Shown here: piece by piece, positions 6,239-59,127 of the stretch | Numbering within the stretch: the first letter of the stretch is position 1 | Layout of the letters: every line of letters starts with the position of its first letter | Assembly (NCBI GenBank): GCA_050575255.1 | Contig: JBNZDD010013568.1 | Coordinates: 1,419,243-1,483,242 of the forward strand | Reading direction: 5' to 3' | DNA: 64,000 nt | From: Harriotta raleighana | Taxonomy: Eukaryota | The notes under the pieces: generated by a model | The model's input: only the letters and a program-made list of their open reading frames with translations | What the model was told of the DNA's origin: nothing | Databases searched by the model: none | Made by a program: the position numbers and the translations under genes

Positions 6239-6514
6239 AGGCCTTAAGTTCCACCTCGTTCTAGTCTGTGAGACCCATGAAAAGGGGGCTTCCAAATTAA
6301 GAGTTGAATAATTTATGGCAGATAGTGGAATTCTGAAATTAAAAAAGAAGTCGCTGGGAATACTCAGCAGGTCAGGCAGTATCTATGGAGAGAGGAAAAT
6401 GAATTTCGGGTTGATGACTGTCATCAGAACTAATTTTTTAAACAAAATTCCTCATGATTTTAAGTTTTAAGACAGAATGAGCCCACAGGCTGAGACCAGA
6501 TCAAATTTGGGGCT
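6239..6514. mobile_element. Degenerate MITE (AGGCCTGAAATT-TIR family) interrupted by a Penelope-like fragment
   Basis: Left aggccttaagttccacctcgttctagtctgtg and right cacaggctgagaccagatcaaatttggggct are imperfect inverted repeats matching the ends at 41261, 43544, 52642 and 56059. Confidence 0.55.
6341..6431 (-). mobile_element. Decayed Penelope-like pLTR fragment
   Basis: Reverse complement agttctgatgacagtcatcaacccgaaattc...tctccatagatactgcctgacctgctgagtattccc aligns with 45560-45659. Confidence 0.7.
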
Positions 6515-7539: not shown

Positions 7540-8182
7540 CTGTAAGTTATTCATCACCTGAGTCCTGTAAACATCTACTGGCAGACACTGAGATTGCTTG
7601 GCTTCTCACTGACAGCTGTCAATTGGAGACCGTGATCCAGCTCAAACAGAACTCCGCTGCCTGCATTCTTACCCGAACCAAACTTTACTCCCCGATTACC
7701 CCAGTCCTCGCCAGACTTCACTGGCTCCCTGTCACAGAGCGAATTGACTTCCAAATCCTCACTCTTGTGTTTAAATCCCTCCACTCCTTTGCACCTTGGG
7801 ACGTCCTCTCGACATGAAAGGCGCTCTATAAGTGTAATTTTGTTACTGTTGTTGTTGTACCTCCTATCTCTCTCCTCACAGCAGTACCTGCTGCCTTCGC
7901 TCCACTGGCTCTGGCCTCCTCCTTGTCCCCCGAATCCTCCTCTCCACCATCGGCGCCTTGCTTTCAGCCACTACGGCCCCACACTCTGGAACTCCCTCCC
8001 TCAATCCCTTCGCCTCACCGCCTACTTTTCCATTTGTAGGTCATGCCTGAAGACCATTCTGTTCGACCGCGACTACAGTCACCTTCTCGCTCCTGGCTCA
8101 GCCCCGGGCTCCGCTATTGTGAAGCGTTCTGAGACCGGCCGTCTGGCGTGGAGGGCGCTATCTAACCCCACGTTGTTGTTGT
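7540..8182 (+). mobile_element. 5'-truncated L2-clade LINE (RT C-terminus + tail type B), interrupted by a type-A tail insertion
   Basis: Translation QNSAACILTRTKLYSPITPVLARLHWLPVTERIDFQILTLVFKSLH and later AFSHYGPTLWNSLPQSLR are typical L2 ORF2 C-terminal motifs; ends in (GTT)n. Confidence 0.9.
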
Positions 8183-11100: not shown

Positions 11101-12663
11101 CAGTATTGCAGCATTCCAACTCATAAATTGAAGCCAGCAATCAATGCAGGAGAGGAATAAGGGCTGTCAACATATTTGTTTTGGGCGTGAATTGCAGTTT
11201 GTAAGATCTGTAACGCCATCCAAGAGCATGTGGAGATGCAGCGGAGGATTTGCATTGATTTATAACCCACCAACTATAGTGGTGGGATTTTGTTTCAATT
11301 AACACATCAACAACAACAAAATTACATTTATAGAGCGCCTTTCAGGTTGGGAGGATGTCCCAAGGCGCTGAGCAATCAGGGGTCAGGACGCAAGCCACAA
11401 ATGAATAATTTTTTTCATATTGTATTGCTTTGAGGTATTACTGACAACTCTGATATAACACGCTTCATTAGAATGCGGACTTCATCATCTTGGTTTGGAA
11501 AAAGCACACAATCTATTTGGTGTACCCATAGCTCATCATTTTGTTTTAGAAAACACACATAATCAACCATTGAACATAATCACAGGCTAGAACTGACTAA
11601 CGAAACAGAAAAGGCTGGTGTGATAGAGGGAACATTTCTTCTAATCTTAAACGAGACTGGATGGAATTTCGGGTTGAGAGTAGGTGAAATTTGAGGTCCC
11701 ATTTAGAGGAAGCATTGCTTTTAAGCGAGTGATAGTCAACAGTAACAGACTCTGTTTGTCGAGCAGACTAAGAATCATCCCAGAATGTACCTTTACTGCT
11801 GGCTACCAACAATGTGAATTCATACTTTTACATCGCTTTCCCACAACTGTCGCAGGACAGCTGCTCTGACACATATTCCTCACAAGAGTCGTACGTGAAA
11901 GCACCAAAGAGCTCTATGTTGGCATGTTGGCAGGAGGTTGCATTGCTCCTGCCCTCCGCCTCCCTTCCACAAAGCTTTGCTATGTCGTCTTCAGGTCAAA
12001 TGCTGGCGTGTTTTTGATATCCCGTGCCAAAGCAAAGCTGATGGAAAGGCGTTAGATTGACTGAACTCAGTCGTATTTGATAGATGTTTTTTTAGATATG
12101 AAATTTAAAAGGCTGCTTCATTCAAATGTGTTTGGGCACTGCCGTCTGCCAGCTCTTATTCTGGAGTTTCTACTTTCAGTCTATCTGAGTAAGAAACATT
12201 GAAATAATGAGTGTGTGGTGGTGACCTGTTTTGATTGATACTGGTGGATTCCTGCTATTTACCCTTTGACTTTCTGAGCCCAGTGTTTGATGTTAATTGC
12301 GATGTGACAAATGACAATGCTTCTCTCCAGGATGACTCAGTTACCGAACTAGACCAGACAGCAGTAAAATGACACTAAAATCAACCCATTACTGTCTTTC
12401 AGTGACTGCTGCTTGTAATTGTGGTGTGGGTTTTAACAACTGTCTGCTTAGAGTCAGTGGCCAGCACTTGTATCTGCCTTCCTGTGACAAGATAATGAAC
12501 CTATGGAAAGAATCTTGCTCTTTCGAGAAAAAAAATAGGAGAAAGTAATCCTGGCAGTATAAAGTCATATTATTATCAGATTTAAATATTATTTAGGATG
12601 AATCTTGAGATTAATTCTGAGTATTATCCAGCTGTAGAGGCTGGTATTAGGATTTTGAGTTCA

Positions 12664-16150: not shown

Positions 16151-16386
16151 ACCCCACCAACAACTCGCTGCATGTCTCCTGGGATGGCAAGGAGGAACTG
16201 ACTATCGGGAAGTAGAGCTAGAACAGTAATACAACAACAACAACAACAACAACAAAATTACACTTATAGAGCGCGTTTCACGTCAGGAGGACATCTCAAG
16301 GCGCTGAAGGAAGCGGTGTGAGAGCAAAACTAATGGGAACAGGAAGAGGTTCTGTTATGATTTGGGGAACAATTACCATTTGGGCC

Positions 16387-16844: not shown

Positions 16845-17045
16845 CAATATAATAATCCCTCAAAAAAACCAATAATAATTTGGTCACTCAATCTGATTGT
16901 GGGACACTGCTGTGTGAAATTGGCTGCTGCGTTTCACCTACAAATGTGCAGTCAATTCACTTTTCAGGGTATTCTGTGAAGCACTTTGAGATGTCTAGAA
17001 GACGTGAAAAGCGTTACATCAACTACAAGTATTATTATTATTATT
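16845..17045 (+). mobile_element. 5'-truncated tRNA/Deu SINE (tail C)
   Basis: Colinear with 25315-25523, ends in (ATT)n. Confidence 0.85.
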
Positions 17046-20770: not shown

Positions 20771-22834
20771 CAAACTCTCGCAAAACTGGTATTATGCCTA
20801 GAATTCATATAATTATCGCATCTATCACCAATTAGTAAAGCATATAAGTGGAACTAGATCAATAATTCCTCACAGTGGAGCAAATTATTCCTGTTTAGGA
20901 GCAAATTTTGGTCCCCAGTTCTCTTGAGTTGCATATTTAGAGTTGGGGAGAATTAAGACACTGTTTTGAAATTGTAATCGGAGGTGTAACAAATTATATT
21001 TGAGTGTATATTAACAGTACTGCATTGAAGTGTCAGCCTTGACTCCGGGCTCAAGTCGTAACCTGGGGGCTTGCACCCAGCAGCTGCTTAACTGATTGCA
21101 CAAAGTATGCTCAGGATTAGTCAACCTGCAATAAAATCTGAACACATGACAAAGTGTATTTGAGAAATAATGAACGATTATTTCAGAATTACAGCGCTGC
21201 AGTGTAAAGGGAAATTAACAGTGAACAGTCTAGAATTACAGTTGTTGCCCGAGTGTTTGATTGACAGAGTAACTTGAGCATCAATCACTGTTCCCATTAT
21301 CCATACCTCAGCACATGCTATTGTGCAGTGGTTGGAGTGTGTTGGAGCAGGAAACAGCACAAGATAGCGGAATGAATTAAACAGAGCTGAAAGCCTCAAT
21401 GTAGAAAGACTCCTGGGCATTGATCTGATAAAATGAGACCTTTTGGAGTGTAGTTAAGCAAGCATGTCATTGATGTTTGCAGAAATATTTGTGCTTTAGA
21501 GAGCTGTTCAGAGCAATTCTTGTCATTCTAGTGGGGTTTTTTTCCCGCAATAGTCACTACTCTTTCGATTGCAATCTGTGTATGATTTCTCGGTAAAAAA
21601 GTCTTTGAAGTTTGGCTCATTCTATATGAGAGAGAGAGAGAGAGTGAGCCCTTCAGCACAGTGCGGATTTACATTGACTTTCTTTTCATGCATCCAGCTT
21701 TATTTAAAACTGCTGCTTTGTTTTATTATGCTTCGGGATTTGAGCGATGCCACGTTTTGCCAGCGTTCGTTGTCCATCTCTGGGTGCTGTTTGAAGACGA
21801 CGGTGGGCCTTCTCTTTATCCTGCTGCAGTCCTTGGGGCCCGAGATAGGAATGGCATCTGGGCTCTGGAGATCAGTGAGAATGGAAAGACAGAATTGTTT
21901 TTCTCTAACCCTACAAAAGCCAAAGAGCGCATCTCAAAGGTCTATAATCCAACTTAGTCTTAGCGAGCGAGACTCTTAAAATTTAAGAGTACGCAGAATT
22001 GTAGAATATTCTGAATTTAGAAGATGCTTCTATCTGAGAACTATTGAAAATTCTCCCTTGTGCTGGAGAAGCAACCAAGACTGCAAGCCTCAAAAAGAGT
22101 TCCCGACGCATAAACTTCTGATCCATAGCCCAAACATAATATCTCTGCCTGTTGCAGCACTATCTGACTTGGGAGAGTAAGCAATGAACTGATTTACCAG
22201 CACTGAAGTCAGCATCATTCTTACAATAATTATATCCAGAAGGCCATAAAAAGATGATTTGATCAGTTTATTCTGCTAGAGGCTCACGTAGGCTTCCTGC
22301 AATTGAAAAATCACAGAGCTGAAAAGATTAGCCAGCATTTCGCCCCAATAAAGGTAGGACATCTCTGATTTGGACCCAGGGAACTTTCCCCTTTAAATGA
22401 CAGAGGTTAATTGGAGGTCCAAGACACATTCCGAGCTGCAACAATTTCCTGCAGAGAGAAGTGAAGATGTTTTCGCCTGAATATCTCAGATGTACCTGCA
22501 ATGAATAACAAGTGCTTCAGGCAAGAGGCAGCTCAGATTGTGGATATCAATTTAACAGCTGATCACACGGAACACGATTTCAATTAACCCCATGAATGCC
22601 ACGGGGGCAGCAGGCTTATAATTACTCTGTCAGCAATTTTTCCACCTTACACAGAAATAACCACACTTCAGTGACCAGGAAACCAACCCAGACATTCCCA
22701 GAGCTGAGCCTCGGAGAAAATAGGAAACTTTACAGATTTATAGATTAATAAAAGCACTACTTACTTTTTTACCCTTTCACAGACAATTGCATCTCAAAGC
22801 AGTGTGACAGAGGCAGTGTGAGACACTGTGCAAA

Positions 22835-25202: not shown

Positions 25203-25523
25203 ATCTTGTAGCTCAGTGGTTAGAGCACTTGCCTTACAAGCCTGAGACCCGTGTTTCGAATCCAGGCAGGTCAGGGCGAAACCTTGGGCAAGTTTCCTTA
25301 CTCCACACACGCGCCCAATAATAATCCATCCCAAAAAACTATAATAAATTGGTCATTTCAATCCACGACTGTTTGTGGGGACGCTGCTGTGCGCAATTGG
25401 CTGCTACGTTTCACCCACAAATATACAGTCAATTCACTTTACAGTATATTCTGTGAAGCACTTTGAGACGTCTAGAAGATGTGGACAGCGCTATACCAAA
25501 TTTAAGCATTATCATATTATTAT
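25203..25523 (+). mobile_element. Full-length tRNA-derived SINE (Pol III A/B boxes, Deu-like body, L2-type tail C)
   Basis: A box tagctcagtgg 25209-25219, B box gtttcgaatcc 25253-25263, body ctgtttgtggggacgctgctgtgcgcaattggctgc, tail stem-loop and (ATT)n; many partial copies in the window. Confidence 0.9.
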
Positions 25524-25580: not shown

Positions 25581-25974
25581 AGAGAGGATTGGTTTCAAGA
25601 TCCTCACCCTCGTCTTCAAATCTCTCCACTCCTCTGGACCTCCTCTCTGACCTCCTCTCTCCTCAAACCAGCACCCGTTGCCTTCGCTCCACTGGGTCTG
25701 GCCTCCTCCATGTCCCCCGAAGCCTCTGCCCCACCCTCGGCAGCCGTGCCTTCAGCCACTATGCCCCGAGGCTCCGGAATTTCCTTCCTCACTCTCTCCG
25801 CCTCGCCCCCTCTTTTTCCAGTTTCAGGTCCCAGCTGAAGATCTTTCTCTTCAACCACGCCTTTGATCACCTTTCTACCCTAGCCCCTGGCTCGGTCCCG
25901 GGATCTGCTATTGTGAAGAGCTCTGAGACGCCGCCTGGCGTGGAGGGCGCTATATAAATCAAAGTTGTTGTTGT
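25581..25974 (+). mobile_element. 5'-truncated L2 LINE with tail type B
   Basis: ERIGFKILTLVFKSLHS...LGSRAFSHYAPRLRNFLPHSLR...FRSQLKIFLF; tail nearly identical to 8090-8182. Confidence 0.9.
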
Positions 25975-29100: not shown

Positions 29101-31331
29101 AGAGGCTCAGAAAAAAATAGCAACTAGCATTCCTTCTGGAGAGGTGATTTTTCCTCCCAATAAAACTTACCAGTTGCCAGCCGGAGATGTGCTTGCTGCA
29201 AAGTGAGATGACAAATTTCCCAGCACTACACCTTTAGTGTATTTTAATAGGAATCAATAAAAGGAGCGTTTGAAATTGATGGTTTTCAGTGAGGAGAGGT
29301 AAGTGTGTACGCCCAAGAACTCTAAGCTGTAATGAATCATTTGGAGCTGATTGGACTCCCTGCTATAGCTGTTAAGGCATGCTAAGGCACCCTATAATTA
29401 AAAATTCCACTCCCTGGAGTCTACCTCACAAGGCTCATCAATCAGTCGATTAGGTATCTTCCAGGCGAGAAGCTGTGATTTCTGGATGTACAAATGTACA
29501 AATGGAAGCCATCTGTTATACGCTGCCAGGGACCTCACAAAAAATCCAATTCCATGTATATTGGAGGTAAATAAATCTTGTGTTTTTCGCAGCTCAGAGT
29601 ATTTCAAGGAGCAGCTAATGAGCCAGCCAGAGATAATCCAGTCTTTTGAGGCTCCTTGCTGTCTTTGTGGTTTTCTGTGTGGCAGAAACGCTGTAAATAA
29701 TTCACTTGCTGGCTTGAAGAAATAACTTCCAGAAGACTTTAGACTCTAGTTTAAGGCGGGTCCATTGGTCTATAATAGCACTGTCTTCTCATTCCAAGAT
29801 GTGAAAACAGGGACAAAGATGTAAAAAAAAGTCTCAATGAGATAAACAGCCAACAACTGGTAGTCAAATGGATTGAGGAATGAAATCAGAGATCGGATTT
29901 AATTCCACAGTATCCTTTGTGATGACACGTCAAAATGTTTGTGACGTTTGAGAAGAGAAGCAGCTGGCCCCCTCTGTCATCAGTAGTTGTGACTGGAAGA
30001 CAAATAACTGATATCCTACCCCTCCAACTGTGTATGAGTGTGATTATGTGTGTGTATGATTTTGAAGTGAGTGTATGTGAATGCAGTGGACAGTTCAGTT
30101 AAACACATACTCAGGTTTGAAACAAACCCGCAACATGAATACCTAGTTATCACGTATGTTATCAAACACGTGTATTAAATGGAAATTTAAGTCTGCAACG
30201 CCACACCTGCTCTGCAAAGGAGATCTAACAACAGGCCTAATCTGCAATATGAAAGGGTTAAAAAGAAACATGAGAACGCAATGGAAGTAAAGCCAGGAGA
30301 TGGAGTGCATCTTGGAGAGGGGGAGTACGCAGCCTTCGTTAGATCTGGGGTATCTGAGGCTATCTCTTTAAACATAACTGGTATTGGCAGCTAAATGCTG
30401 TATCAGAAGAAAGTTACTCAGTTTTATTGATCAATTCAAATAACAGGAAGCTCTCAATCAAACAGCCAGTACTTAAATGTCTAGGATTTGAATGGGCAAG
30501 TGTCCGAGAAGCACACATCCATTAGTCGTTGTACAGCAGTAACAATACTGCAGCAGCGAAATGGAACTCAGTCCAATCCCAGTGATTATCCAGCCAGGAA
30601 TGCGTTGTATTAATGCAGCAGTGTCAGCCCCAATGACTGAGATTTCCTTGACATCTGTTGCCTGACGTTTAACCAAGCTAAAATTACAGTCATTTGAATG
30701 AGGTGCGTATAGAGGAGTGGGGTGGTGGGTGGGGGGGGGAACGTACTTAACAGCAGCAGCATCAAGAACAATGCATTTACGAGCAAGTGGGGTTATTTCC
30801 TCAGGCCTGCCTGCAAAACAACAACAACAACAACAACAACAAAATTACACTTATAGAGCGCGTTTCACGTCAGGAGGACGTCCCAAGGCGTCCCAAAATA
30901 AACTTGCGTGACTTGAAACAAAGCCGGGTTTTCTCTTGATCACAATGCCGTCTTCATTTCATGGCATAGCTAAGGACATTTTAGATAGCTTCGCATTTGT
31001 CACTCTGTCAGCTAAAATTCAATAAACGCGGACTGTTGGGTTACATTACACTGGCTGACTCTCCCTCTCCACATATCCTGGCACATATTTTGCAGAGTGT
31101 CCACTGAGCCAGAGCGTATTTGCTTTTAATTTCACTGGGAAAAATAACATACTCTTAGCGGATATTGCATAGACTGTATATAGCAGATATTTTTGCTTGT
31201 TAATTTGAATATTTGGCACCAGCTGATTCAGTGGTAAACCATATAGGCTGCACGGTCACAGGATCCATTCCCAGTATGTACTCAGGTTAGAGTTAGATTA
31301 GAGTGGGTGATTAGAGTGGGGGAGTGAGCAC

Positions 31332-31396
31332 CAACAACAACAACAGCAACCAAATTACATTTGTATAGTGCCTTTAATGTCGGAAGGATGTCCCAA
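31332..31396 (-). mobile_element. L2 tail type A
   Basis: caacaacaac...aaattacatttgtatagtgcctttaatgtcggaaggatgtcccaa. Confidence 0.8.
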
Positions 31397-31613
31397 TTCT
31401 CTGCATTAAACTTCATCTGCCATGTGTCTGCCCACTTTACCATTCTATATATATCTTGCAGATGGTTACAATTCTCCTGACTATTTACTATTCTCCCGAA
31501 CTTAGTATCATCTGCAAACTTGGAAACTGTGCTCCCTACACCCAAGTCCAGATCATTAATATATATTAAAAAGAGCTGTGGTCCCAAAACCGATCCCCGG
31601 GGGACGCCTCTGC
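31397..31613 (-). mobile_element. CR1-clade LINE reverse-transcriptase core fragment
   Basis: Reads RGVPRGSVLGPQLFLIYINDLDLGVGSTVSKFADDTKFGRIVNSQENCNHLQDIYRMVKWADTWQMKFNAE (GVPQGSVLGP and FADD motifs) with no stops. Confidence 0.95.
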
Positions 31614-34600
31614 ACAGCTAGAAGGCTCAGCTTCCAAGGGTGTGACAGGTGGGGGGAGTGCAGGCCCGAGTTTGTTGAGTGGAAGGGAGCCGGTAGCAGG
31701 GGGGGGGGGTCAACATAGTGAGGCTGGAGGTCCCAGCAATAAGGAATGGTGAGGTGGTATATGAATTCATAGGGGGAAATGAATCAATTGAAGTTATTGC
31801 AATGGGAGATCAGGGGCTAGTGGAACCTGGCCAAGTGGCCTCCTTTGAAATGTTCTGACGTTGTGTATCACACGGGATATTGGCCCTTTGAGTCTAGATG
31901 TATATTTGCAACCCCTAGTTACGGAGATATATAAGTCATAAGTCATCGCTGCCAATTCCATGTTGACAAGCTGTGTAGAAACAAAGCCCAGAACTATGAG
32001 GCAGAGACAGAGCTGGATGGAGTGGAGTGCCTCACAGTGATGCATACATCTACCCAAACCACAAGTTGATCTGTATTTGTCATAATATATGTGCAGAAGC
32101 CCACAGACTTCTGGCGAAAGATCTTGTGGTTAGATTAACCAAGAAAGAACTTGGACGCCTGATTGCTACCAGCATTGGAGAAAGTCGTTGCTACCAGGAA
32201 ATATGAATTGCGTTCACACGGCCTGTGTGCTCGAGTCAGATACGGGGGCACCTTGCAAACCAGTTCTCACTTGTCTGATCCTGTGTCTGTTCTGTCGGCT
32301 GTGTATGTGTCACTGAACAGCCACTCCAGCCCAGTCAGCAGAAACCTCGAACAGCTGACTTTCTTGTTTTTATTTTTGAAGTTCTGCTAGTAGATCTGTT
32401 GTTAGTGCAGTTTGCAATCTGTTAACCCTCCGATTGCCAGATGAAAATCAATGTATTTGCCCGGCTGAATTCATATCATTCTGCAGTTTTACTTAACTGA
32501 GTGAGCAGAGAACACAGGCATTGTAGGCTGGCCTTTACTGCGTCCTAAATGTATTGTACCCCAACTACTGTACTAACTAGTGGATAGAGGATCTGTCCTA
32601 ACTTGTTATCAAATTCTCACCAATTAAAGCAATTTCACATCTCCCAGGACTGCACAAGAAATCAAAAGGCCCTGTAGCTTCCACTTAAAGGTGCAAACTC
32701 CCTCCTCCCGAAGTGAACGGCGCTGTATAAATATAATTTTTCTGTTGTTGTTGTTTTGCTGTTGTTGTTGTTGTTGTGAATCACTTTCCCAGGGAGGGCT
32801 TTCCTCTCTAATAGACTGATTGTGTAACTCGTGCGAGGACGGTTCTGTGCAGCTTTGTGCAAACTGACAGCACCCCAGCCAAGAATTCTTAACTGCGACT
32901 CTGCTAACCTTTATCCAGCTGGAGCCAGTGCGAGGTCAGATTTCAGCACCAGCTGTATGGTCAGCTACTCAAACGCTAGTTAAATAGATGGAAGTAGTCG
33001 GTGGGAGATACAGTAGTAAGAGCGAGTTTCAACTGATAGGAATTCTCAGACACGCTACACATGTTCTAAACAACGCCCCTGCAGCACCCCACCCTCAAAA
33101 CAAACAATACAACAGCTCTAGAAAGGCAATCAGAAGTCCACTTCACAGTACATAGCCTTGGGAGGTCCTCCCGACGTGAACGGTGCTCTATAAATATAAT
33201 TTTATTGTTGATTTTGTTGTTGTACATCCCATGAAGCTCTTTGGGACATCCACCCGATGTGAAAGTTGCTCTATCAAATGCAAGGATAAATTCTTAATTA
33301 TTATATTGATGACTACATTGAATTCGTGTGGCTGCCAATCACTTTAACCTGACCAACACATTTCACTGCATAAGCCAAGAGCAGGATCGTTTAATTTAAA
33401 GGTACAGACCTAACCAGCGTGAACCAAGGACAATCCTCTACACCTAACAGACTCTGTGAGTGACTTCACACTCCAGAGATTGAATGCAAACGAAGTCTTA
33501 TTTTGGTTCCAGGGGCACAAGATTGACGAACACAATGAAGACTAAAATGACTGGAAGGAGATGTACTCAGTTGAGGGCCCCATTGCAGAGAAGACATAGC
33601 CCAACAGTGATTGTTGTATCACTGCCACACTGCCCCCTTCTGGTGGAAGAGCAGGTGAGTACGATGCACCCTACCCTTCGCAGAATTACATGGAACGCTA
33701 CAGCAAGAAAATTGCAGCTTCCAATGTGCGACTCTCTCGAGATCATTTCTCCTTTATTCTCCTCTTCTAATCAAACCAATGAGTATCGCTGTCCTCCAGC
33801 GCTTGATCCAATTGGTCTTGCTTACGCAGCACTCCTTGAGACGTCCTCCCTCCCGACGTGAAAGGTGCTCTAGAAATTTAATTTTGTTGTTGAGTGTTGC
33901 CGGGCTATCTCACAGAGCAGAGGCATCACAGGCCTGTCAGATCCTGTACTCGCCCGGCGAACACAATCAGGAATGGGATCACAATCAGGATCTTGATCCT
34001 CTCTAGCATTTAATATACAAGTGACTGCATCGACCATTTACACGTCGAGTCATTAGGACGTTAAATACGCATGTTTCTCTGTATAAGTTAAATATGAGAA
34101 TAGAAGAGGTAGGAGTGGTAATATGAAGAACGGTGTTTATCTCTACAGCTGGTCCAGTGACTGCCAATGTGATTTATCTCACCCACGAGGTGCCTGTTTG
34201 CTCAATGCTGGACAGTGTCTGTTTTTTGTCAGGCGTACAGTCGTGATTTACCACAAAGCATGGCTTGCTTTAAACTGGTGAGACAAGATTTGTAACATTG
34301 TGATGATTATTTGGGAAGGATTAATCAGAGCAGAAGCTTGCGGGGGCAATAATTCTCCATGTCCACAGCCCTGTTACTGATTCAGAATTGCTGATTGGAA
34401 GGGATTCCTGATCGTCCAGTGAGTGGCTTATGGTTTAGCTCCACTACATGCCTCAGTGTCTGTCTGTTGGCAGCTAAGGGGACAGCTGCCTTCATCTGCT
34501 CCTTAATGGTATGATGCCTCTGGCTGACCCTTCAGGCTATCAAGTTCAGTCATGTTTCCATGGAGTCTGGGAAAGGCTAGCGGGTCAGCCTATGGGATCA

Positions 34601-35189: not shown

Positions 35190-35440
35190 AGCAGGTCAAG
35201 ACGAAACCTTGGGCAAGTTTCCTTACTGCACACACCAGATAATAATCCCTAAAATAAAAAAAAATTCATTGGCCACTTCAATCCAGGACTGTTTGTGGGA
35301 CAGTGCTATGCACAATTGGCTACCGCGTTTCGCCCACATATAGACAGTGAATTCACTTCACAGTATATTCTGTGAAGCGCTTTGAGACATCCAGCAGATG
35401 TGATATATCAAATGCAAGCATTAGTATTATTATTACTAAT
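35190..35440 (+). mobile_element. tRNA/Deu SINE lacking the A box (tail C)
   Basis: gcaggtcaagacgaaaccttgggcaagtttccttact... colinear with 25266-25523. Confidence 0.85.
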
Positions 35441-39694: not shown

Positions 39695-39897
39695 CACATG
39701 GGCAAGTTTCCTTACTCCACGCGCCTAATAATAATCCCTCCCAAAAAATATTGGTCATTTCAAACCACAAATATTTCAATACATTGCGGAGCCCACAAGT
39801 ATACAGTCAGTTCACTTTACAGTATATTCTGTGAAGCGCTTTGAGACTCTGAGAAGACGTGAAAAGCGCTATAACAAATGCAAGGATTATTATTACT
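39695..39897 (+). mobile_element. SINE copy with deletion in the Deu body (tail C)
   Basis: tgggcaagtttccttactccacgcgcctaataataatcc...gtgaagcgctttgagactctgagaagacgtgaaaagcgct. Confidence 0.85.
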
Positions 39898-40784
39898 ACC
39901 ATACAATTTATAGTCTCATCCAGGCTCATTTTGGTTGCACTCGTGCTTCTGAGTCAGTTGATTGTGGGTTTAGCCCCACATTGATGCTATGGAAGGCAAT
40001 GAAAGACGTCTACATAAATTGAAAGTGCTTTGGATGGTTTGTTTTAACTTGCTCTAAGAATTCCCCATATACCGTAAAAAGTGCATAAAACACATCAGTC
40101 GAACACAATCATTCATTTCCTACAGTTCATGGTAGTATAGCTTGTAAAAATGCACTGCAAGACACTTCAACTACAACACTGCCCATTTGAGGACTTGATC
40201 CTGTAGAGTTTTAGTGGGGTGCACTGAACTGACAGATGAGTGAGCACTTCCAAGGGAAACACAAACAGTAAATATTACCCTTCTCTTGAAAACTCAATTC
40301 TAGACCTACTGGGAGCTTGAATTGTTTCATGTGTGAAGGCATCTGCAAGAGGCAGACGGAAACTCAGATAAATGGGACGCTTTATTCATGCAGGTCGGAT
40401 TTTACTTTCTCCTGCATTTTGGGAAATGTGTTATTCCACTGTGTGCACGGATGGCTTCCAAGATGCGTTAAAAACTCCATTCTGCTGCAAGGCTGCTGTT
40501 CGTTTCAAAAATACATTTGGGCTTTGAAACTGCCTGACAAGGGGAATGTCGAGTAATTGTTTCAGTCGCAGGCAGTTGCTCGGTGGCTTTCAGGACTCAG
40601 CCTTTGAAAGTGCAAATTGTGGAGATTCCTATCCCACGCAACATGGTTGGCTCCTGACATCCAGTGAAATGACCCTAACAAGTCACCCAGTCACACTAAC
40701 CAGGGAAAGGCAATAAATATCAACCTAGGCGGCAGCCATAATATTCCAAGATGTATTTAAGAAATCAATAGCTGATGCCTCCAG

Positions 40785-40848
40785 GGCCTTGGGACGTCCT
40801 CCTGACGTGAAACGCGCTCTATAAATGCAATTTTGTTGTTGTTGTTGT
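40785..40848 (+). mobile_element. Tail-only L2 type-A insertion (representative of many copies)
   Basis: gccttgggacgtcctcctgacgtgaaacgcgctctataaatgcaattttgttgttgttgttg; similar copies near 8913, 11306, 16230, 30817, 32700, 33155, 33825, 54415 and 59068. Confidence 0.85.
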
Positions 40849-41260
40849 CTTCACGTTCAGCCATTCTTAAATGAATCCAGCATCTATGCCTCAATCCCCC
40901 TCCCTGGGAAAACTCTGACCTTCAAGGCCACTCACGGCCTTGCCCCCGCCCATCAGATCGATGGAAGGAAGTTCCTCTGATTTTCCAGGCAAGGGCATAG
41001 CTTGACAGTTTAAGTACCTGTAATTTGGAGCAATGTGGAATAAGAGCCAGAATTACACACCCCTTCCACATTGTATCTCATCGGGCCCTTTAAAAAAAAC
41101 TAACATCCAAATACTATACTCCAACTGTTCTGCATATCTCAATCAAGAACACGCAATTACTTTTACTTTAGAATTTGATACCGTTAAATAAATAGTGTAA
41201 TCAGCAGACTGGCCAGTGCAGCATCTATTTGAGCCTTAATTTTATAATCCAATAAAATGG

Positions 41261-43544: not shown

Positions 43545-44184
43545 CCCGGCTGGATACGCACAAGCGTTTCTCACTTTTTAAGCGTGTTTTTGCTAGCGGT
43601 GTTCACCTGCAGACTGTCGTTTGCTGGAGTTCCTGGGGGGGGGGGAGTGCAAGAAGCCAGAAGCGTTGATTTGGAGGAAAGTGAAATGTTGAAGTCAACA
43701 CTGTTATAAAACCTAAGCAAAGTGAGCAGTCATTTATCAGCTGGAGACTGAATGCACATGTTAGCTGGATCTTTGTTTAATTAACCATACATGCCAATTT
43801 CAATCTGTTTTACAGTCTTTAGTATTTACATCATGTTTGTCAGCCATTTAAAATTGATTCCCGAATGCTCCTTTCTGCCATGCCAGCGGAAGATATTTTG
43901 GTTGAGAAAAAGTACTTTTTTTACCCCCCCCTCCCACCCCAAACATTTTTAGTTTTCACGCTCTCGGCTATGGCAGCAGATTGAGTGCTGCAACTGGCTG
44001 TGATATCTCTATATCAGGGACGAGGATATCTGCCAGGGTTCCTGAAGCCTGTCACTGCTGACCAGAGACCTCTCTGCTCAGCAAGTATGGGTATTGTGTG
44101 CGTCCATGCGTCACCTTGTTGTAATCTCGAGACATCTCAAAGTACTACACAGTACAATGTATAGCACAATGACTGTTTATTTTG

Positions 44185-44400
44185 TGGGTGAATAATGGCG
44201 AGGGAAAGACCAGTGAGGAAAGGATTGGGATTATTGAGGTCGGTGGTGATGAATGGATATGGGTTTGGCCCACGTTGGGCATGAGACACAGTTGGAGGCG
44301 GGCGATGTGGTGGAGGTGGAGGAATGTGGTCCTGGGCAGAGACCAGATGTGGGGAAGGACAGTCGGGAACCAATACTGATGCCTAGTTTGAGCACAGGTT
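44185..44400 (-). mobile_element. Highly decayed L2 RT fragment
   Basis: Reverse complement yields LGISIGSRLSF.../RTTFLHLHHIARLQLCL.../FITTDLNNPNPFLTGL, resembling L2 'LGV..D..LSF...FFHLRNIARLR...FVTSRLDYCNSLLAGL'. Confidence 0.6.
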
Positions 44401-45298
44401 TAGTGAGTCTGAAGGGTAGGCAATTGAGAAGAAAATCGAGCGCAAAATAGGGTAATGAGATGAAAACAAATTAATGCTGATATAATGATTCAAAACAATG
44501 TGATGACTTTTCTCATCACATGAAAAGCAAGTTTAGATCAGTGACTGAATTAAAATTAAGTTTTGATGAATCTTTGCAGCTGTTTCTCTATTCAACCTGG
44601 TATTCCTATTCCTAAAAGTTTCTCAACCAGAGAGCGAGAGACAGCATTAAACAGACTGTTTCCCCTCACTAACACCAGTTAGCCTCCAGAAAATGAACAG
44701 CGAAGGTGCCTTTCATGTCAGGTGGATGATTATACAGGATATCAACCTTTTAATTAATTTCCCTTCTCCATTAATTCTACTTACAAGGGTGAAATAACTG
44801 TCTTTTAACTACTAATTGGATCAAGGCAATTTGATGCTCAGCCAGCGTTCCTGGGATGTCACACAGTGTTCACAACGCGGATGACATAATTACCAGATTA
44901 ATTTTCATAAACACTTCAGAGCTGAAACATAAACATTCTTGGCCGGGAGTTGTGATAGATTTATGGAGTCCTCAAACAGATTTGCTCAGCTTTTCCCTGA
45001 CCACTTTAAAGTAATAAAGATATAAGGTGCTATTTAACTTACTACGTGTAAAGGAAGACAGCAGTTTCAGGGCTTATTAAGATGGTAGATGGTTGTGAGG
45101 ATAGACATACGTTTAGCACTTAAATTCCTTCGGCAGTGAGTAAGATTCCATGGCCACATGGATCCCGTTCTTTAGCGTGTCTCTCAATGAACTAAATACT
45201 GAGGCATCTTTTGCCATTTTGGATGTAGGAATGGAATAATTGTGGAAAAATTATTTGATCAGCAACATCCAGCGCTTAAAAAGATCTTCACAATACAT

Positions 45299-45659
45299 AA
45301 ACAAAACAATCAGAACTCCAGACATCCCTTGCCTCTCTGGTGTTTTGGCTGTTCTATCACCACTAAACACCTCTTCTCCCCAGTTTCGTTCAAACCCATC
45401 TCCTTTTGTTTCTCGCCCGTACATTGTTAGCACATTTTCAACCCATTAGTTAATACACTCTTTTTTCTTTGTCTTTTTTGTCTCCTTTGTCTTCCATGTC
45501 CTGCCCCCCCCCCCCCGTCGCTCTAATTTCCTTAAAATCTCTCCCTCCAAACATGCCCCAGTTCTGATGAAGGGTCGTGGACCCGAAACGTTGACTCGCT
45601 TTCCTTTCTCCATGGATGCTGCCTGACCTGCTGAGTTTCCCCAATAACTTCTGTTTTTC
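45299..45659 (+). mobile_element. Penelope-like element pLTR/3' fragment, 361 bp
   Basis: Exact 13-bp TSD CTTCACAATACAT at 45286-45298 and 45660-45672; pyrimidine-rich body; contains a hammerhead motif followed by ttctccatggatgctgcctgacctgctgagtt. Confidence 0.75.
45560..45596 (+). ncRNA. Minimal type I hammerhead ribozyme motif
   Basis: agtt-CTGATGA-a-gggtc gtg gaccc-GAAA-cGTT-gact: both core boxes, 5-bp stem II, palindromic ACGT stem III, 4-bp stem I. Confidence 0.7.
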
Positions 45660-46509
45660 CTTCACAATACATCTTGGCTGGTCTCTGAATAATAAAAGTA
45701 AAATAAATAGAGAATTCCACACTACTTCACCTCTTATACATCAATCTAGCTCTACGATTCCCTTTTGAATCTGCTCATTTTATTCCGCCTTCACTCCCTC
45801 CCTATTCCCAGCACTAACTGTCCTCCTGAATTGGAGTCTCTGTGTTCTCTTATTCTAGTTTTTATTTCAACACTCGCGTTTAGTTTACACATGTCGATTG
45901 GGATCCTGAATATTTCAAATAAGATCTCCCCCAAGCCTATTTTTAGTGTATACCTCAGGACATTTTGGTGGGGATTTGTGTTTGGATACTGTGAGTAAAA
46001 AAAACATTTAATTCTCTGACATTCAGGGGATGGTAATTGGACATTTATTTTAAACTAATAGCAGAACAATGTCATTTGTATGCTTATCGCTGATCATTTC
46101 CATAATTTGTTATTGAACAAAGTGGAATTACTTTCTGCTTTCCTGTTAGCTTTGTATTTGGGCTGATGGCGAATGTTTGAAGAGAAAACCTCGTGAATAT
46201 TTTATGGGAAATATGGAGAAGACAGCCAGCTTTCATGCAAACAAAGATCATTACCATGGCTGGCAGCAAATGTAAAGGAAACGAAACCGGCATGTAATGC
46301 CAATATTTGGTGTGAATAGCGAAATCTGATGATTAAATCCAAGGCTATTTGCTTCATCCGAATGACTCTGTTACATTAAAAAATTGACTTCTGTTCGTTT
46401 GTATTCATATCAATGTGAGACGCTCTTAAATCAGTCATTTAAACTCTTCACCATGGAGAAGAGGCTCACTGACACTGCCAATACCAATAGAGATCTCTCA
46501 ACACACTTT

Positions 46510-46665
46510 AAATAATAACTAAAATAATCCTTGTACTTGATACAGCATCTAAAGCTTCATGGTATCTCAAAGTGCTTCACAGGGAACTCTTGCCAAGTGC
46601 AGTGACTGTTTATTTATAGACAGACAGGATAGCCAATTTGCACATAACAATGTCTCACAAACAAT
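46510..46665 (-). mobile_element. Deu-type SINE 3' half (tail C)
   Basis: aaataatccttgtacttgatacagc...tctcaaagtgcttcacagggaa...agccaatttgcacataacaatgtctcacaaac. Confidence 0.7.
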
Positions 46666-48294
46666 TTGAAGCAATGTGAAGCGAATTACCAATTTATAAT
46701 TATAATTTGTATAGTTTTATAAATTATAATTTGCAATAAGTATGTGTAAAAANATGTCTCACAAACAATTTGAAGCAATGTGAAGCGAATTACCAATTTA
46801 TAAGTATAATTTGTATAGTTTTATAAATTATAATTTGCAATAAGTATGTGTAAAACTTGGCTACTTTAAGATGGGAATAGGATCTGGGTATATTGTACAT
46901 TTATTTGCTAATTTACAACACACAGCACTAGAGTAGTTGCATTTCACAATACTGTTAAACCCCAATTCTTCCGCTGTGAGATAGAATGTCTCCAAAAAGC
47001 AACTTTATAGGGTTTGTTGGTGAATCCAACCCTTCTCTTCGCCCCCGCAATCGTTACCAAAACTTGCGTTGAGTCACACAGAAGCTATTGAAAGTTTGGG
47101 GGTGTTTCTATGAGGATTCACACCAGAGAGAGAGCGAGAAACACTTTGAGTTTGCAGACAGAAAAAGTCATTGATGGATATTATTCAAAACTTTAATATT
47201 TAACAAAGTAACTCAAATCAAAAATCTCTCCGCTATCACTCTCCGAGTGTACAGCTGAGAGGTGTCTGTGTGAGTCCTGAGCAGATGGTGGAAATGAATG
47301 AATTTAGGTGACAGCTCCAACTAAAGCTGACACATAAAGAATGTACAAATATAGCTTTGTTTCTCACATAAGCACTCTGTCACAAATAATTTACCTGAAG
47401 TGCTCTAAATCTCTGCCGAGTGCTATTGATTGCATCCGTGGCCTTGGTGGGAAGCAATTACAATGAAATGTCAGACTGTTAATGCAATCCAGTTTAGTGG
47501 TCTATCACATCTGCTCTTCACTGCCTGACACATCCATGACAAATGTAAAATTACTAAAAGCAATGAACTCTTCTGTCTTGCATGCGTGTTCCTTTCAAAT
47601 TAGTGCTGCCATACATTACATTTCCTGTTGTGTGCTGCTCTGAGTGGATGTCTTTATGGTTTAAATGTTAGCTGTGCCTCTCTTTTATCGTCCAGTCAGC
47701 AATGAATATTCTGACGTTGGGAACATATTTAGAGGCCACATTAAGCTCTTTTGCAAGCCTGGGTGGGATGAAATTTTTTTTATCGGTGCTGCGCATAATA
47801 TTCCATTATTTTTGTCAGTGTTTTGTGTCTGTGACCTCCATTCAACACTCAGGTTAAAGAGCTGGGAGAGTGACCTGCTTTAAAATAACATTAGGGAGAC
47901 TCGGGGAGCTTGGAGTTAGTTTGCCAATTGGAGGTACACACTCAAGACTATAACAGATCATTCACTTCACGGCCGTTTATTGGATATTGCCTCTTTCACT
48001 TACATATACACCGTCACTGCCCTGTACAGAAGCACTCCGAGATTTTCTCACCATTAAAAGGGCGTTAGATCAATCGTGTGGATTAATATAAACATTGATG
48101 GGCGGCAGACTTATTTGGAATGGTCCGAAAATAAACAGAAAATCGTTCATTCGATCTGGCACAACTGCCTCTGGTATTCTCACTGACAGACATTGGGATT
48201 TGAATTTCCTCGCCTCGGGCACCGAGTGTGCAGTTTCTCTCTGGCTCGGGTGACCAAGGTTGTGGTGGTGGAGTCAGGCACTGCTTACCTCTTG

Positions 48295-56215: not shown

Positions 56216-57658
56216 TCTTATTCCCTGTTTCCAATCACAGAGATAGCAATTTCAAAACTAACACAATAACTCAGATTACTGTTGCAAAAACACTTCAGGA
56301 AAAGGTCACAATTTGATTGCTTTGAAACCTTATTCAATTATTAACCTCTTACCTCATCCCTGGTCAGTCATCACTTGTGTGATGTCAGGGGCAGAGAATA
56401 GTGAATCTTTGTGCGATAGGTTAGAGTATCGGAATGTAGCTGTGAAAGACAGAGAGAAAGATAGAAAGACAGAGATAAGCAAATAAAGGCAGACAGACAC
56501 AGACACACACAGACTAACAGAAAGAAGAAAACTGTTTCCAAAAAAAATAATTAACTGGAACAATTAATAATGTAGCACTTTTACATTGAATTATTTAGTG
56601 CCTCTCAGACTGACAAATCGCCAGGACAGTCTCATTCAGTACACAGCTTGTTCTCAGCCTTTGTGGAAACAGTTGCTCAGGCCAGTGTGGAGTATTGCGA
56701 GATTATTTATTTTAGCTTTGTGGCTGTTGATCAAAGTGAAGGCAATCTCCGCTAAACGCTGTAGCATCCTAAGCCACTACAAACTCCCAGAGGCTATCGA
56801 CCACATGACCTTAGCAGTCTAAATTATGCCAGGGATCCCGGGGAGTGTGCCCATGGGATTGCTGTATCCAAACACTTTAGCATACGAGAGGTCTGCTCTC
56901 TGACCTGTACAGCGACAAAGCTATCTGGAATTGTAATTGAGTTCCGAACGGGGTGCTATTTGCTGCTTGCTGCTAGCCAGTGCACAAGCAGTCTGTCTGT
57001 GATGCCTCTAAAGCCACAGTAAACACCCCCCCCCCACATCTCGATCCATCTTAATCCAATCAAACAACAATGATTTGATATCTCAAATCAAATCCAGCAG
57101 AAGACCAAACCTGCATTCGTTAGAATTATGCTCAGGCCATACATAAAAGGTACTCAGTGTTTAGTTCAGTTGCTTTCCCTTCAATCATCGCCCAGCCTTC
57201 CACCCCATCCACCGGTTGCCTCTAAGAACCACTGACTGCAGCCTCTTTGACTTGGGAGATGTTCATTGACCAAACCCAGAGATTACTGAGTGTGTGTGTG
57301 GGTGGGAGGGGGGGGGGGGGTGGTGGTGCTGGGGGCAGTTTTCCCAGAAAAGTTGAGCATTGGCCCTATCTGGTGGCTGATTGGAATATCACAGCTGTGG
57401 TGGAACACTGTTCAGTCATGTTCATCACCAGTCTTTCTCTCTCATCAAGTCAAAGGCAGAGCCCTCCCCGCACTGAGGGCACAAAACAGCCAATCTGATG
57501 AATTCGATGTTCTTGTTGCGAACCAATTAGGTCTGGTCCGTCTTCCTCTACACTTGACACCAGTTCCCGTGAAACACTTTGCGCTGTTTATCAAATGCAA
57601 GGATTATTATGAAGGAGACCTCGCAGCAGTGTATTGAGAACAATCGACTCTGTACAAA

Positions 57659-57805
57659 CACAAGATACTACAGATGCCGGAAATCTGAAACAAAANAGAT
57701 GCCGGAAATCCGAAACAAAAACCGACGAAGGGTCGTGGACCCGAAACGTTGACTCACTTTCCTTTCTCCATGGATGCTGCCTGACCTGCTGAGTTTTCTG
57801 TTTTT
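57659..57805 (+). mobile_element. Short Penelope-like insertion with inverted 5' segment
   Basis: 13-bp TSD gactctg(t/a)acaaa at 57646-57658 and 57806-57818; 57727-57796 nearly identical to 45569-45638. Confidence 0.75.
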
Positions 57806-59127
57806 GACTCTGAACAAAGTCTGACTCGGTTATGAAAACAGTTGTTTTTTTTTACATTTGGCGATTGTTGCCTGTGAAACAGTTTGAGATGTTTTGGGAG
57901 AAAGGTGAACAACTACAAGATCGTCTTTTCTTTTGGGGTTGGGTGGGAAGAATATAACAAGCAGCCTTCCTGCTTTTGCTTGTTGTACAGTGACCTCCCC
58001 CACCCCACCCCAGCTGGGAGGTCACTGTGCACAGGCCAGTTGAGGACAGCCAAATCAGGATTTGCTGTGATGTCTCCACAATCATCCAATACTTTCCAGT
58101 GGAGTGCAGTGGACTCTCCGTTTGTTAGCTTATTGTTTGGTTCGATGGTTTCCTGTCTGATCCCAGCCTTTGTGGGTGGATGACATTGGATATGGAATTC
58201 CTTTCCTAAGGCCAAAACTTCCAGATGTCACAACCCGCACTGTAAAGTTCTCTTCACTCATGATCATAACAACAACAACAACAACATTTATATGGTGCCC
58301 TTCACGCTCTCAGTGACACTCAAGCGCTTTATTGTTTTGTATCGTCGAGAAAAAGTGATGGTTTCATTTATGGCTTCACTGATCAATAGATAAGCTTAAA
58401 CATTGGTTTAAAACAACTCGTTCCGCTCCGCTCAGCGAGTCCCCACACATTTAAATGTCCTTCATGTATGGTGCTCTTTCTCTTCTCCATAATGCAATGT
58501 TAATGCCCATTAATGGTGGTTGAGGCAATGCTATTTACATAGAATTAGTGTAACTCAGGAGTGTGTTCAGCAGTGCTGATTGATATCAGCGTTAAAACCA
58601 AAATGTAAATGCCAACTCAGGTCAAAACCCCAAAGCTAAAAAGACGGATCGTGGGCCAGTGCTGAGGCTAACTAAAAGCACCTTGGAAAGACCCTGATGA
58701 AGCCTCTGCCTCAACATGATCATCCCAGCATACAAATTGCTTGTAGTCCTTTTCACTGTGTCTAAGGCAAATGGCACTCGCCATTGCAGTGTGCCTGCAG
58801 GCTCTGGCGCTGTGTGGATGGTACACAGTGTATATGTGGGTGCTAGACCCACATTAGGGACTTTGCGCCCACAGTCTGAGATGACACTCCAGTGCTGGGC
58901 TGGGGGGCACCGTGGAATGTCAGTCTTTGAATGACAGTAAAACCGTGTGTGCCTGTTTGTCGCTTCCCTCAATTCCTTTCAGGTCCATCTCAAACCCCTT
59001 TTAACTGCTCTTTCAGGTATCCTCCGTCCCTCACCTCTCTTTCGTTCCCTCCCCCCTCCTAAATACAATGCCTTGGGACGTCCCCCCAACATGAAAGATG
59101 CTATTAAATGTAATTGGTTGATGTTGT

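Follow-up and report, generated by a model that had tools for sequence, protein, structure and literature searches.

Harbouring a complete but solitary hammerhead ribozyme motif, a stretch of the Harriotta raleighana genome raises the question of how the motif came to lie there and whether it could cut a host transcript. The stretch analysed, referred to here as the window, comprises 64,000 nucleotides of contig JBNZDD010013568.1; it has 37–46% GC, many short repeats and no long open reading frame (ORF). The motif is carried by an insert of 361 bp enclosed between the copies of a 13-bp direct repeat, and an earlier note on this DNA had proposed that the insert is a ribozyme-bearing retroelement that could cleave host RNA if transcribed within an intron.

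Occupying positions 45560–45596 of the forward strand is a complete minimal type I hammerhead (Table 1). Stem I is formed by 4 bp, with a U–G pair adjoining the core, and the monomer has no stem III, in place of which is the palindrome ACGU. From hammerhead numbering, cleavage is predicted between 45592 and 45593. A descriptor of the minimal hammerhead, run on both strands, matches the window only here and finds nothing in 60 windows simulated with a third-order Markov model, owing to which we do not regard the motif as a product of chance. No hammerhead family of Rfam release 15, the models of which derive from more complete motifs, was matched at E ≤ 10 in the whole window or in 45500–45700. 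In fold predictions, the energies of which ignore Mg2+ and tertiary contacts of the core, stem I pairs with a probability of at most 0.04 in three longer sequence contexts, and core bases are paired with CGUU in the minimum fold of the monomer.

Table 1. Features of the insert and of the related copies in the window (PLE, Penelope-like element; pLTR, pseudo-LTR; TSD, target-site duplication).
Feature	Position	Strand	Remark
Copy 3, older relative	6319..6431	-	CUGAUGA retained; mismatches in stem II; stem III/cleavage site lost by deletion
Left 13-bp repeat, putative TSD	45286..45298	+	Exact; pair unique in window
5′ part of insert, pyrimidine-rich	45299..45559	+	Likely non-coding PLE 3′ sequence reaching upstream to the presumed 5′ truncation point
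Stem I, 5′ strand AGUU	45560..45563	+	
Catalytic core CUGAUGA + extra A	45564..45571	+	CUGAUGA 45564–45570; extra A (45571) between positions 9 and 10.1
Stem II GGGUC/GUG/GACCC	45572..45584	+	5 bp with G10.1–C11.1 (G45572–C45584), 3-nt loop
GAAA, palindromic ACGU, NUH triplet GUU	45585..45592	+	GAAA 45585–45588; ACGU 45588–45591; GUU 45590–45592
Stem I, 3′ strand GACU	45593..45596	+	
Conserved 3′ segment of putative pLTR, without optional tail	45597..45658	+	Common to copies 2 and 3
Right 13-bp repeat, putative TSD	45660..45672	+	Exact repeat
Copy 2, left 7-bp direct repeat, candidate TSD	57646..57652	+	
Copy 2, inverted family end with 39-nt tail	57653..57725	-	
Copy 2, forward pLTR fragment, broken off within hammerhead core	57726..57805	+	
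Copy 2, right 7-bp direct repeat, candidate TSD	57806..57812	+	Starts at 3′ end of copy 2

The 13-bp repeat is exact and occurs nowhere else in the window, and we infer it to be a target-site duplication (TSD). Exact repeats of at least 13 bp spaced 50–1000 bp apart are frequent here (16 pairs in the window, against a mean of 2.4 in 30 simulations), but the right copy begins one base past the point at which homology with the two related copies described below ends, and a 13-bp repeat starting no more than 3 bp from a fixed point was found at 60 of 20,000 random positions. The coordinates and spacing given in the earlier note for an exact 13-bp TSD around 361 bp are all correct, as is every base and coordinate that it assigned to the hammerhead (stem I, CUGAUGA, extra A, stem II, GAAA, ACGU and GUU). 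Pyrimidines make up 68% of the insert, and some 65 nt separate the hammerhead from its 3′ end. Two sub-stretches of the part 5′ of the hammerhead (45299..45559) were compared within the window and yielded no second copy, and the tested frames of this part had no match in Pfam.

BLAST and an nhmmer profile identify exactly three clear copies of the family in the window. Besides the insert itself (copy 1) there is copy 2 at 57722–57805 (+), with 2 differences from copy 1 in 71 nt, as befits the same-strand relative sharing stems II and III that the earlier note had placed at 57722; copy 3, at 6431–6319 (−), is 74% identical over 109 columns. Copy 2 is composed of a 7-bp repeat, an inverted tail, a forward fragment that breaks off within the hammerhead core and a second 7-bp repeat. 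Stem II, GAAA, ACGU and GUU/GACU are intact in the forward fragment, with a predicted site after 57750, and the segment in front of them reads AAAA in place of the 5′ strand of stem I and CCGACGA in place of CUGAUGA; most simply, this set was lost because the inversion junction falls there. Near the 3′ end of copy 2 is an 11-nt deletion. A 7-bp repeat such as that bounding copy 2 was found at 79 of 20,000 random positions, in a comparison window picked after the repeat had been seen. About 25 nt of the copy 2 tail occurs twice, on either side of a single N (57696), which probably reflects an overlap in the assembly; to the right of this N the tail runs without a break into the forward fragment. 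A similar doubling is seen at 46650–46855, where a 102-bp stretch is repeated head-to-tail with 99% identity across a single N at 46753; this is likely to be a contig-overlap artefact.

The ends of the three copies differ in character, the 5′ ends being staggered and the 3′ ends clustering at two points. One and the same T-run closes copies 1 and 2, and copy 3 extends for about 25 nt beyond it. This extension is matched, in reverse complement, by the DNA immediately upstream of the copy 2 forward fragment, with a score reached by 5 of 5,000 random window segments, draws that may include the copies themselves. The tail defined in this way measures 39 nt in copy 2 (inverted, read from the T-run) and about 25 nt at the 3′ end of copy 3, and is missing from copy 1. 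Its start resembles a splice acceptor, with a pyrimidine run followed by CAG. Primer microhomology, in which the start of the TSD would mimic the tail, was rejected, as only 7 of 14 bases agree, a level that 917 of 20,000 random 14-mers reach. At the other end, copies 2 and 3 lack the 5′ 260 bp of copy 1. The hammerhead is broken in two of the three copies (n = 3).

Within the conserved 3′ segment, an ATG at 45616 (57774 in copy 2) opens a frame spanning 45616–45657 (+) that would continue into the tail. A similar arrangement is described for Adineta Pen2a, the pLTR and tail of which encode the first 12–22 codons (PMC3846280). A two-sequence profile of the frame starting at the ATG retrieved no protein with such a start, its two matches both being unrelated tandem-repeat proteins.

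Coding sequence belonging to the element or to a host gene was sought across the window. From 993 stop-to-stop frames of at least 35 amino acids, together with exon candidates, 287 frames (140 and 147) were scanned against Pfam, giving one RVT_1 fragment, six weak matches below the cut-off and nothing else; none of the 287 links a reverse transcriptase (RT) or GIY-YIG domain to any hammerhead copy. The RVT_1 fragment, at 31285–31617 (−), has an E-value of 1.6e-6, just under the cut-off, is unrelated to the three hammerhead copies and is presumably CR1-like. Protein searches with the frames of the element itself returned four candidates for the plus strand, none at E ≤ 10, and two for the minus strand, none at E ≤ 1. 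The window contains 76 splice-site exon candidates, the highest scoring of which, at 33513–33654 (+), consists of 142 nt in one open frame and has no family match. A protein-like open frame of 123 amino acids at 21586–21954 (+) has no match in Pfam or the PDB and no homologue (Atlas top score 0.90, with low recognition); targeted searches with it and three other exon-like candidates gave nothing usable. Neither the 287 Pfam frames nor these targeted searches thus point to a host gene, although short exons may escape such searches. Compared with sequencing runs, the region 44000–47000 gave a list of 19, of which 16 contain part of the stretch and none half or more of it, and no RNA run is among the matches listed. 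A scan for bacterial promoters and terminators, which is not relevant to a vertebrate, was empty.

Other repeats abound in the window. Dispersed over it is a repeat with a tRNA-like head (25205–25523 (+), 42282–42127 (−), 35191–35433, 39699–39898, 16849–17045 and others), which is a tRNA-derived SINE family; its heads score 33.6 and 29.4 bits with the Rfam tRNA model, and ARAGORN predicts no tRNA genes. Two LINE-like 3′ fragments, at 7868–8182 and 25655–25974, are 78% alike, and both they and a frequent repeat of 60–80 bp (30815–30890, 16228–16310, 11301–11380, 40772–40851 and others) end beside (AAC)n runs; we take these to be, probably, 3′ ends of an L2/CR1-type LINE. Scans for the motif were extended to other sequence collections. 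Viral contigs had no match in either of two scans, and prokaryote genomes had none in one scan and four, in contigs of bacterial metagenome-assembled genomes, in another. The one match among metagenome contigs (L001, 6001–6026) falls in a GC-rich bacterial coding frame, which we assume to be UvrC-like, and was set aside as chance.

The minimal hammerheads of Penelope-like elements (PLEs) were defined by the sequence CUGANGAH, a G10.1–C11.1 pair, a short stem I and a palindrome at positions 15.2–16.2 (PMC4209133, Cervera and De la Pena 2014). Copy 1 fits the consensus of Fig. S3 in that paper at every position tested and copy 2 does not. Shared by copy 1 and the published class are the CUGANGA…GAAA…NUH core in type I order, an additional H base separating position 9 from 10.1 (A45571) combined with G10.1–C11.1, a stem I within the range of about 2–6 bp, the lack of stem III and the palindrome. 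Of the 56 motifs in Fig. S3, 15 have the core ending C-G-U-U of copy 1, and none of the 56 is identical to copy 1 or comes from a cartilaginous fish. The motif at 45560–45596 thus adds a new member to the class of PLE minimal hammerheads, known since 2014. According to the 2014 description, about 4,000 such motifs are present in coelacanth and 9,000 in Xenopus, most being dispersed, single and derived from truncated PLEs; single motifs are inactive and dimers weak (PMC4209133). Literature on Penelope hammerheads in sharks, chondrichthyans or elasmobranchs yielded no publication on the copy 1 family, although the supplementary tables of a 2026 preprint may include this family or a relative of it, and three short motifs of the family were not found printed in the literature searched.

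The anatomy of the copies points in the same direction. Insertions of PLEs are described as showing 5′ truncation, inverted 5′ pieces and an optional tail of 30–40 bp (PMC8557442), and TSDs of 8–10 bp are described around such units (PMC3846280). Here, the tail of 39 nt matches the published range, 5′ truncation and an inverted 5′ piece are both seen among the three copies, and short putative TSDs are represented by 13 bp in copy 1, longer than the 8–10 bp just cited, and by the 7-bp candidate in copy 2. The Poseidon element of Anolis carolinensis (PAc) and Adineta Pen2a likewise combine a hammerhead near the pLTR end with a 30–40 bp tail, an inverted 5′ piece and a short TSD, but bear ORFs, whereas copy 1 has none (PMC11167929, PMC3846280). 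For PAc, it is reported that the tail spans the distance between two RT start sites, that reverse transcription mainly uses unprocessed RNA, and that the ribozyme cleaves only with the PLE protein, with no RNA-seq reads beginning or ending at the cut site (PMC11167929, Frangieh et al. 2024). By its fit to the Fig. S3 consensus (PMC4209133) and its place in a family with PLE insertion anatomy, the Penelope-type identity that the earlier note had given the motif is borne out.

We consider it probable that the insert is the 3′ end, or pseudo-LTR (pLTR), of a PLE, left by target-primed reverse transcription that probably stopped early, and that its hammerhead, as predicted, is inert here. On the model of published PLEs, the two 3′ end points would represent two RT start sites bounding the tail. 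The TSD would go back to a staggered nick introduced by GIY-YIG endonuclease from an autonomous element, and reverse transcription of copy 1 would have begun at the inner start site, leaving it without a tail, and stopped after about 360 nt, with repair producing the 13-bp duplication. As sequence upstream of the cleavage site is retained in every one of the three copies, the templates appear to have been uncut at the motif. Within the parent element, cutting would be confined to a double hammerhead assembled between two pLTRs through the ACGU palindrome, probably aided by the element's own protein; a lone copy would have neither stem III nor a second-pLTR partner. Against this reading is that none of the 287 scanned frames of the window ties an RT or GIY-YIG domain to one of the copies, and that the length of the insert would fit a discrete family too.

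Such a family would consist of non-autonomous units of about 360 bp, PLE-derived and SINE-like or monomers of a non-LTR retrozyme, transcribed by themselves and mobilized in trans by PLE protein, and we regard it as unlikely. It would account for the clean TSD and for the lack of a coding frame in the insert, and animal non-LTR retrozymes do resemble copy 1 in being non-coding, about 300–360 bp long, equipped with a type I hammerhead and akin to PLE pLTRs (PMC7229834, bioRxiv 10.64898/2026.07.22.740005). The 361 bp of the insert compares with a mean of 363 bp for chondrichthyan retrozyme families, a value obtained from one chondrichthyan genome in the preprint that ties animal retrozymes to PLE pLTRs and reports monomers dispersed along chromosomes (bioRxiv 10.64898/2026.07.22.740005), and pLTR sequences alone are described as mobilizable in trans (PMC3846280). 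However, retrozymes are organized as tandem units with at least two motifs, those reported as expressed having canonical type I motifs in tandem repeats (PMC7229834), whereas copy 1 is a lone, minimal motif. No tandem unit with two or more consecutive complete hammerheads is present at the locus, the nearest relative being broken and 12 kb away, and neither end of the insert falls at the cleavage site, where those of a cleaved monomer would be expected. Copies 2 and 3, moreover, start elsewhere. Ordinary 5′ truncation fits better than a family of its own because the 5′ ends are staggered and the 5′ 260 bp is unique in the window, a reading that rests on three copies. Of the non-autonomous ribozyme-bearing retroelement proposed in the earlier note, the insertion in PLE manner stands and the separate non-autonomous family is, in view of the staggered 5′ ends, the less likely reading.

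In a double hammerhead, one molecule contributes the 5′ strand of stem I, the core, stem II and GAAA, and the other contributes the NUH site and the 3′ strand of stem I. A working ribozyme in a host transcript would require the core of copy 1 to cut the GUU of a partner, for instance copy 2 after 57750, or a partner in trans, and we judge this very improbable. Speaking for it, the core of copy 1 and the ACGUU/GACU of copy 2 are intact and on the same strand, the site after 57750 lying 12,158 nt downstream. As copy 2 lacks the catalytic CUGA and the 5′ strand of stem I, however, it could serve as a substrate only and is unable to help cut 45592, and the cleavage of host pre-mRNA at that position through the copy at 57722 that the earlier note had envisaged is not supported. 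Between these two, copy 1 acting on copy 2 is the sole geometrically possible cut, and one predicted to be unfavourable. Held together by only 4 + 4 intermolecular base pairs, the half-dimer of copies 1 and 2 has a predicted energy of −16.6 kcal/mol against −22.0 kcal/mol for the separate folds, and is thus 5.4 kcal/mol less stable; a dimer of copy 1 with itself is predicted to be less stable than the separate folds by 2.6 kcal/mol, and the dimers of lowest predicted energy open stem II. Neither a host gene, nor its strand, nor a transcript was found in the searches described above, and with the motif broken in two of three copies there is no sign of selection. PLE protein is reported to be able to switch such a motif on (PMC11167929), and one of nine Xenopus dimers is reported to have been cleaved (bioRxiv 10.64898/2026.07.22.740005). 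The domesticated hammerheads in amniote introns (RECK HH9 and kin) are, like copy 1, type I motifs in non-coding vertebrate DNA, but are described as canonical and as ultraconserved single loci (PMC6155905), whereas the motif of copy 1 is minimal, its repeat looks young and has sister copies with broken motifs, and the searches above gave no host gene.

That the repeat stems from a non-Penelope element, or that a hammerhead-like pattern and a 13-bp repeat coincide by accident, would suit the missing Rfam match, the missing ORF link and the 16 pairs of 13-bp repeats, but is highly improbable given the empty simulations, the full fit to the published consensus (PMC4209133), the location of the repeat at the 3′ end of the family and the anatomy of tail and inverted tail.

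As the truncated 3′ end of a PLE, the most likely reading, copy 1 in itself is of minor importance, since motifs of this kind were already reported by the thousand in the genomes of coelacanth and Xenopus in 2014 (PMC4209133). It is nevertheless a tidy example, with TSD, tail and inverted tail displayed by three copies in one window, and since Rfam misses the motif at 45560–45596, standard annotation would overlook motifs of this kind. We give very little credence to a wider scheme in which solo Penelope ends are split ribozymes within long host transcripts, forming enzyme–substrate pairs that trim pre-mRNAs and lncRNAs genome-wide, perhaps upon activation by PLE protein. If lone copies did cut host RNA through distant partners, this would bear on the in vivo role of the minimal hammerheads of PLEs, and copies 1 and 2, as an enzyme-only and a substrate-only half, would provide a natural test.
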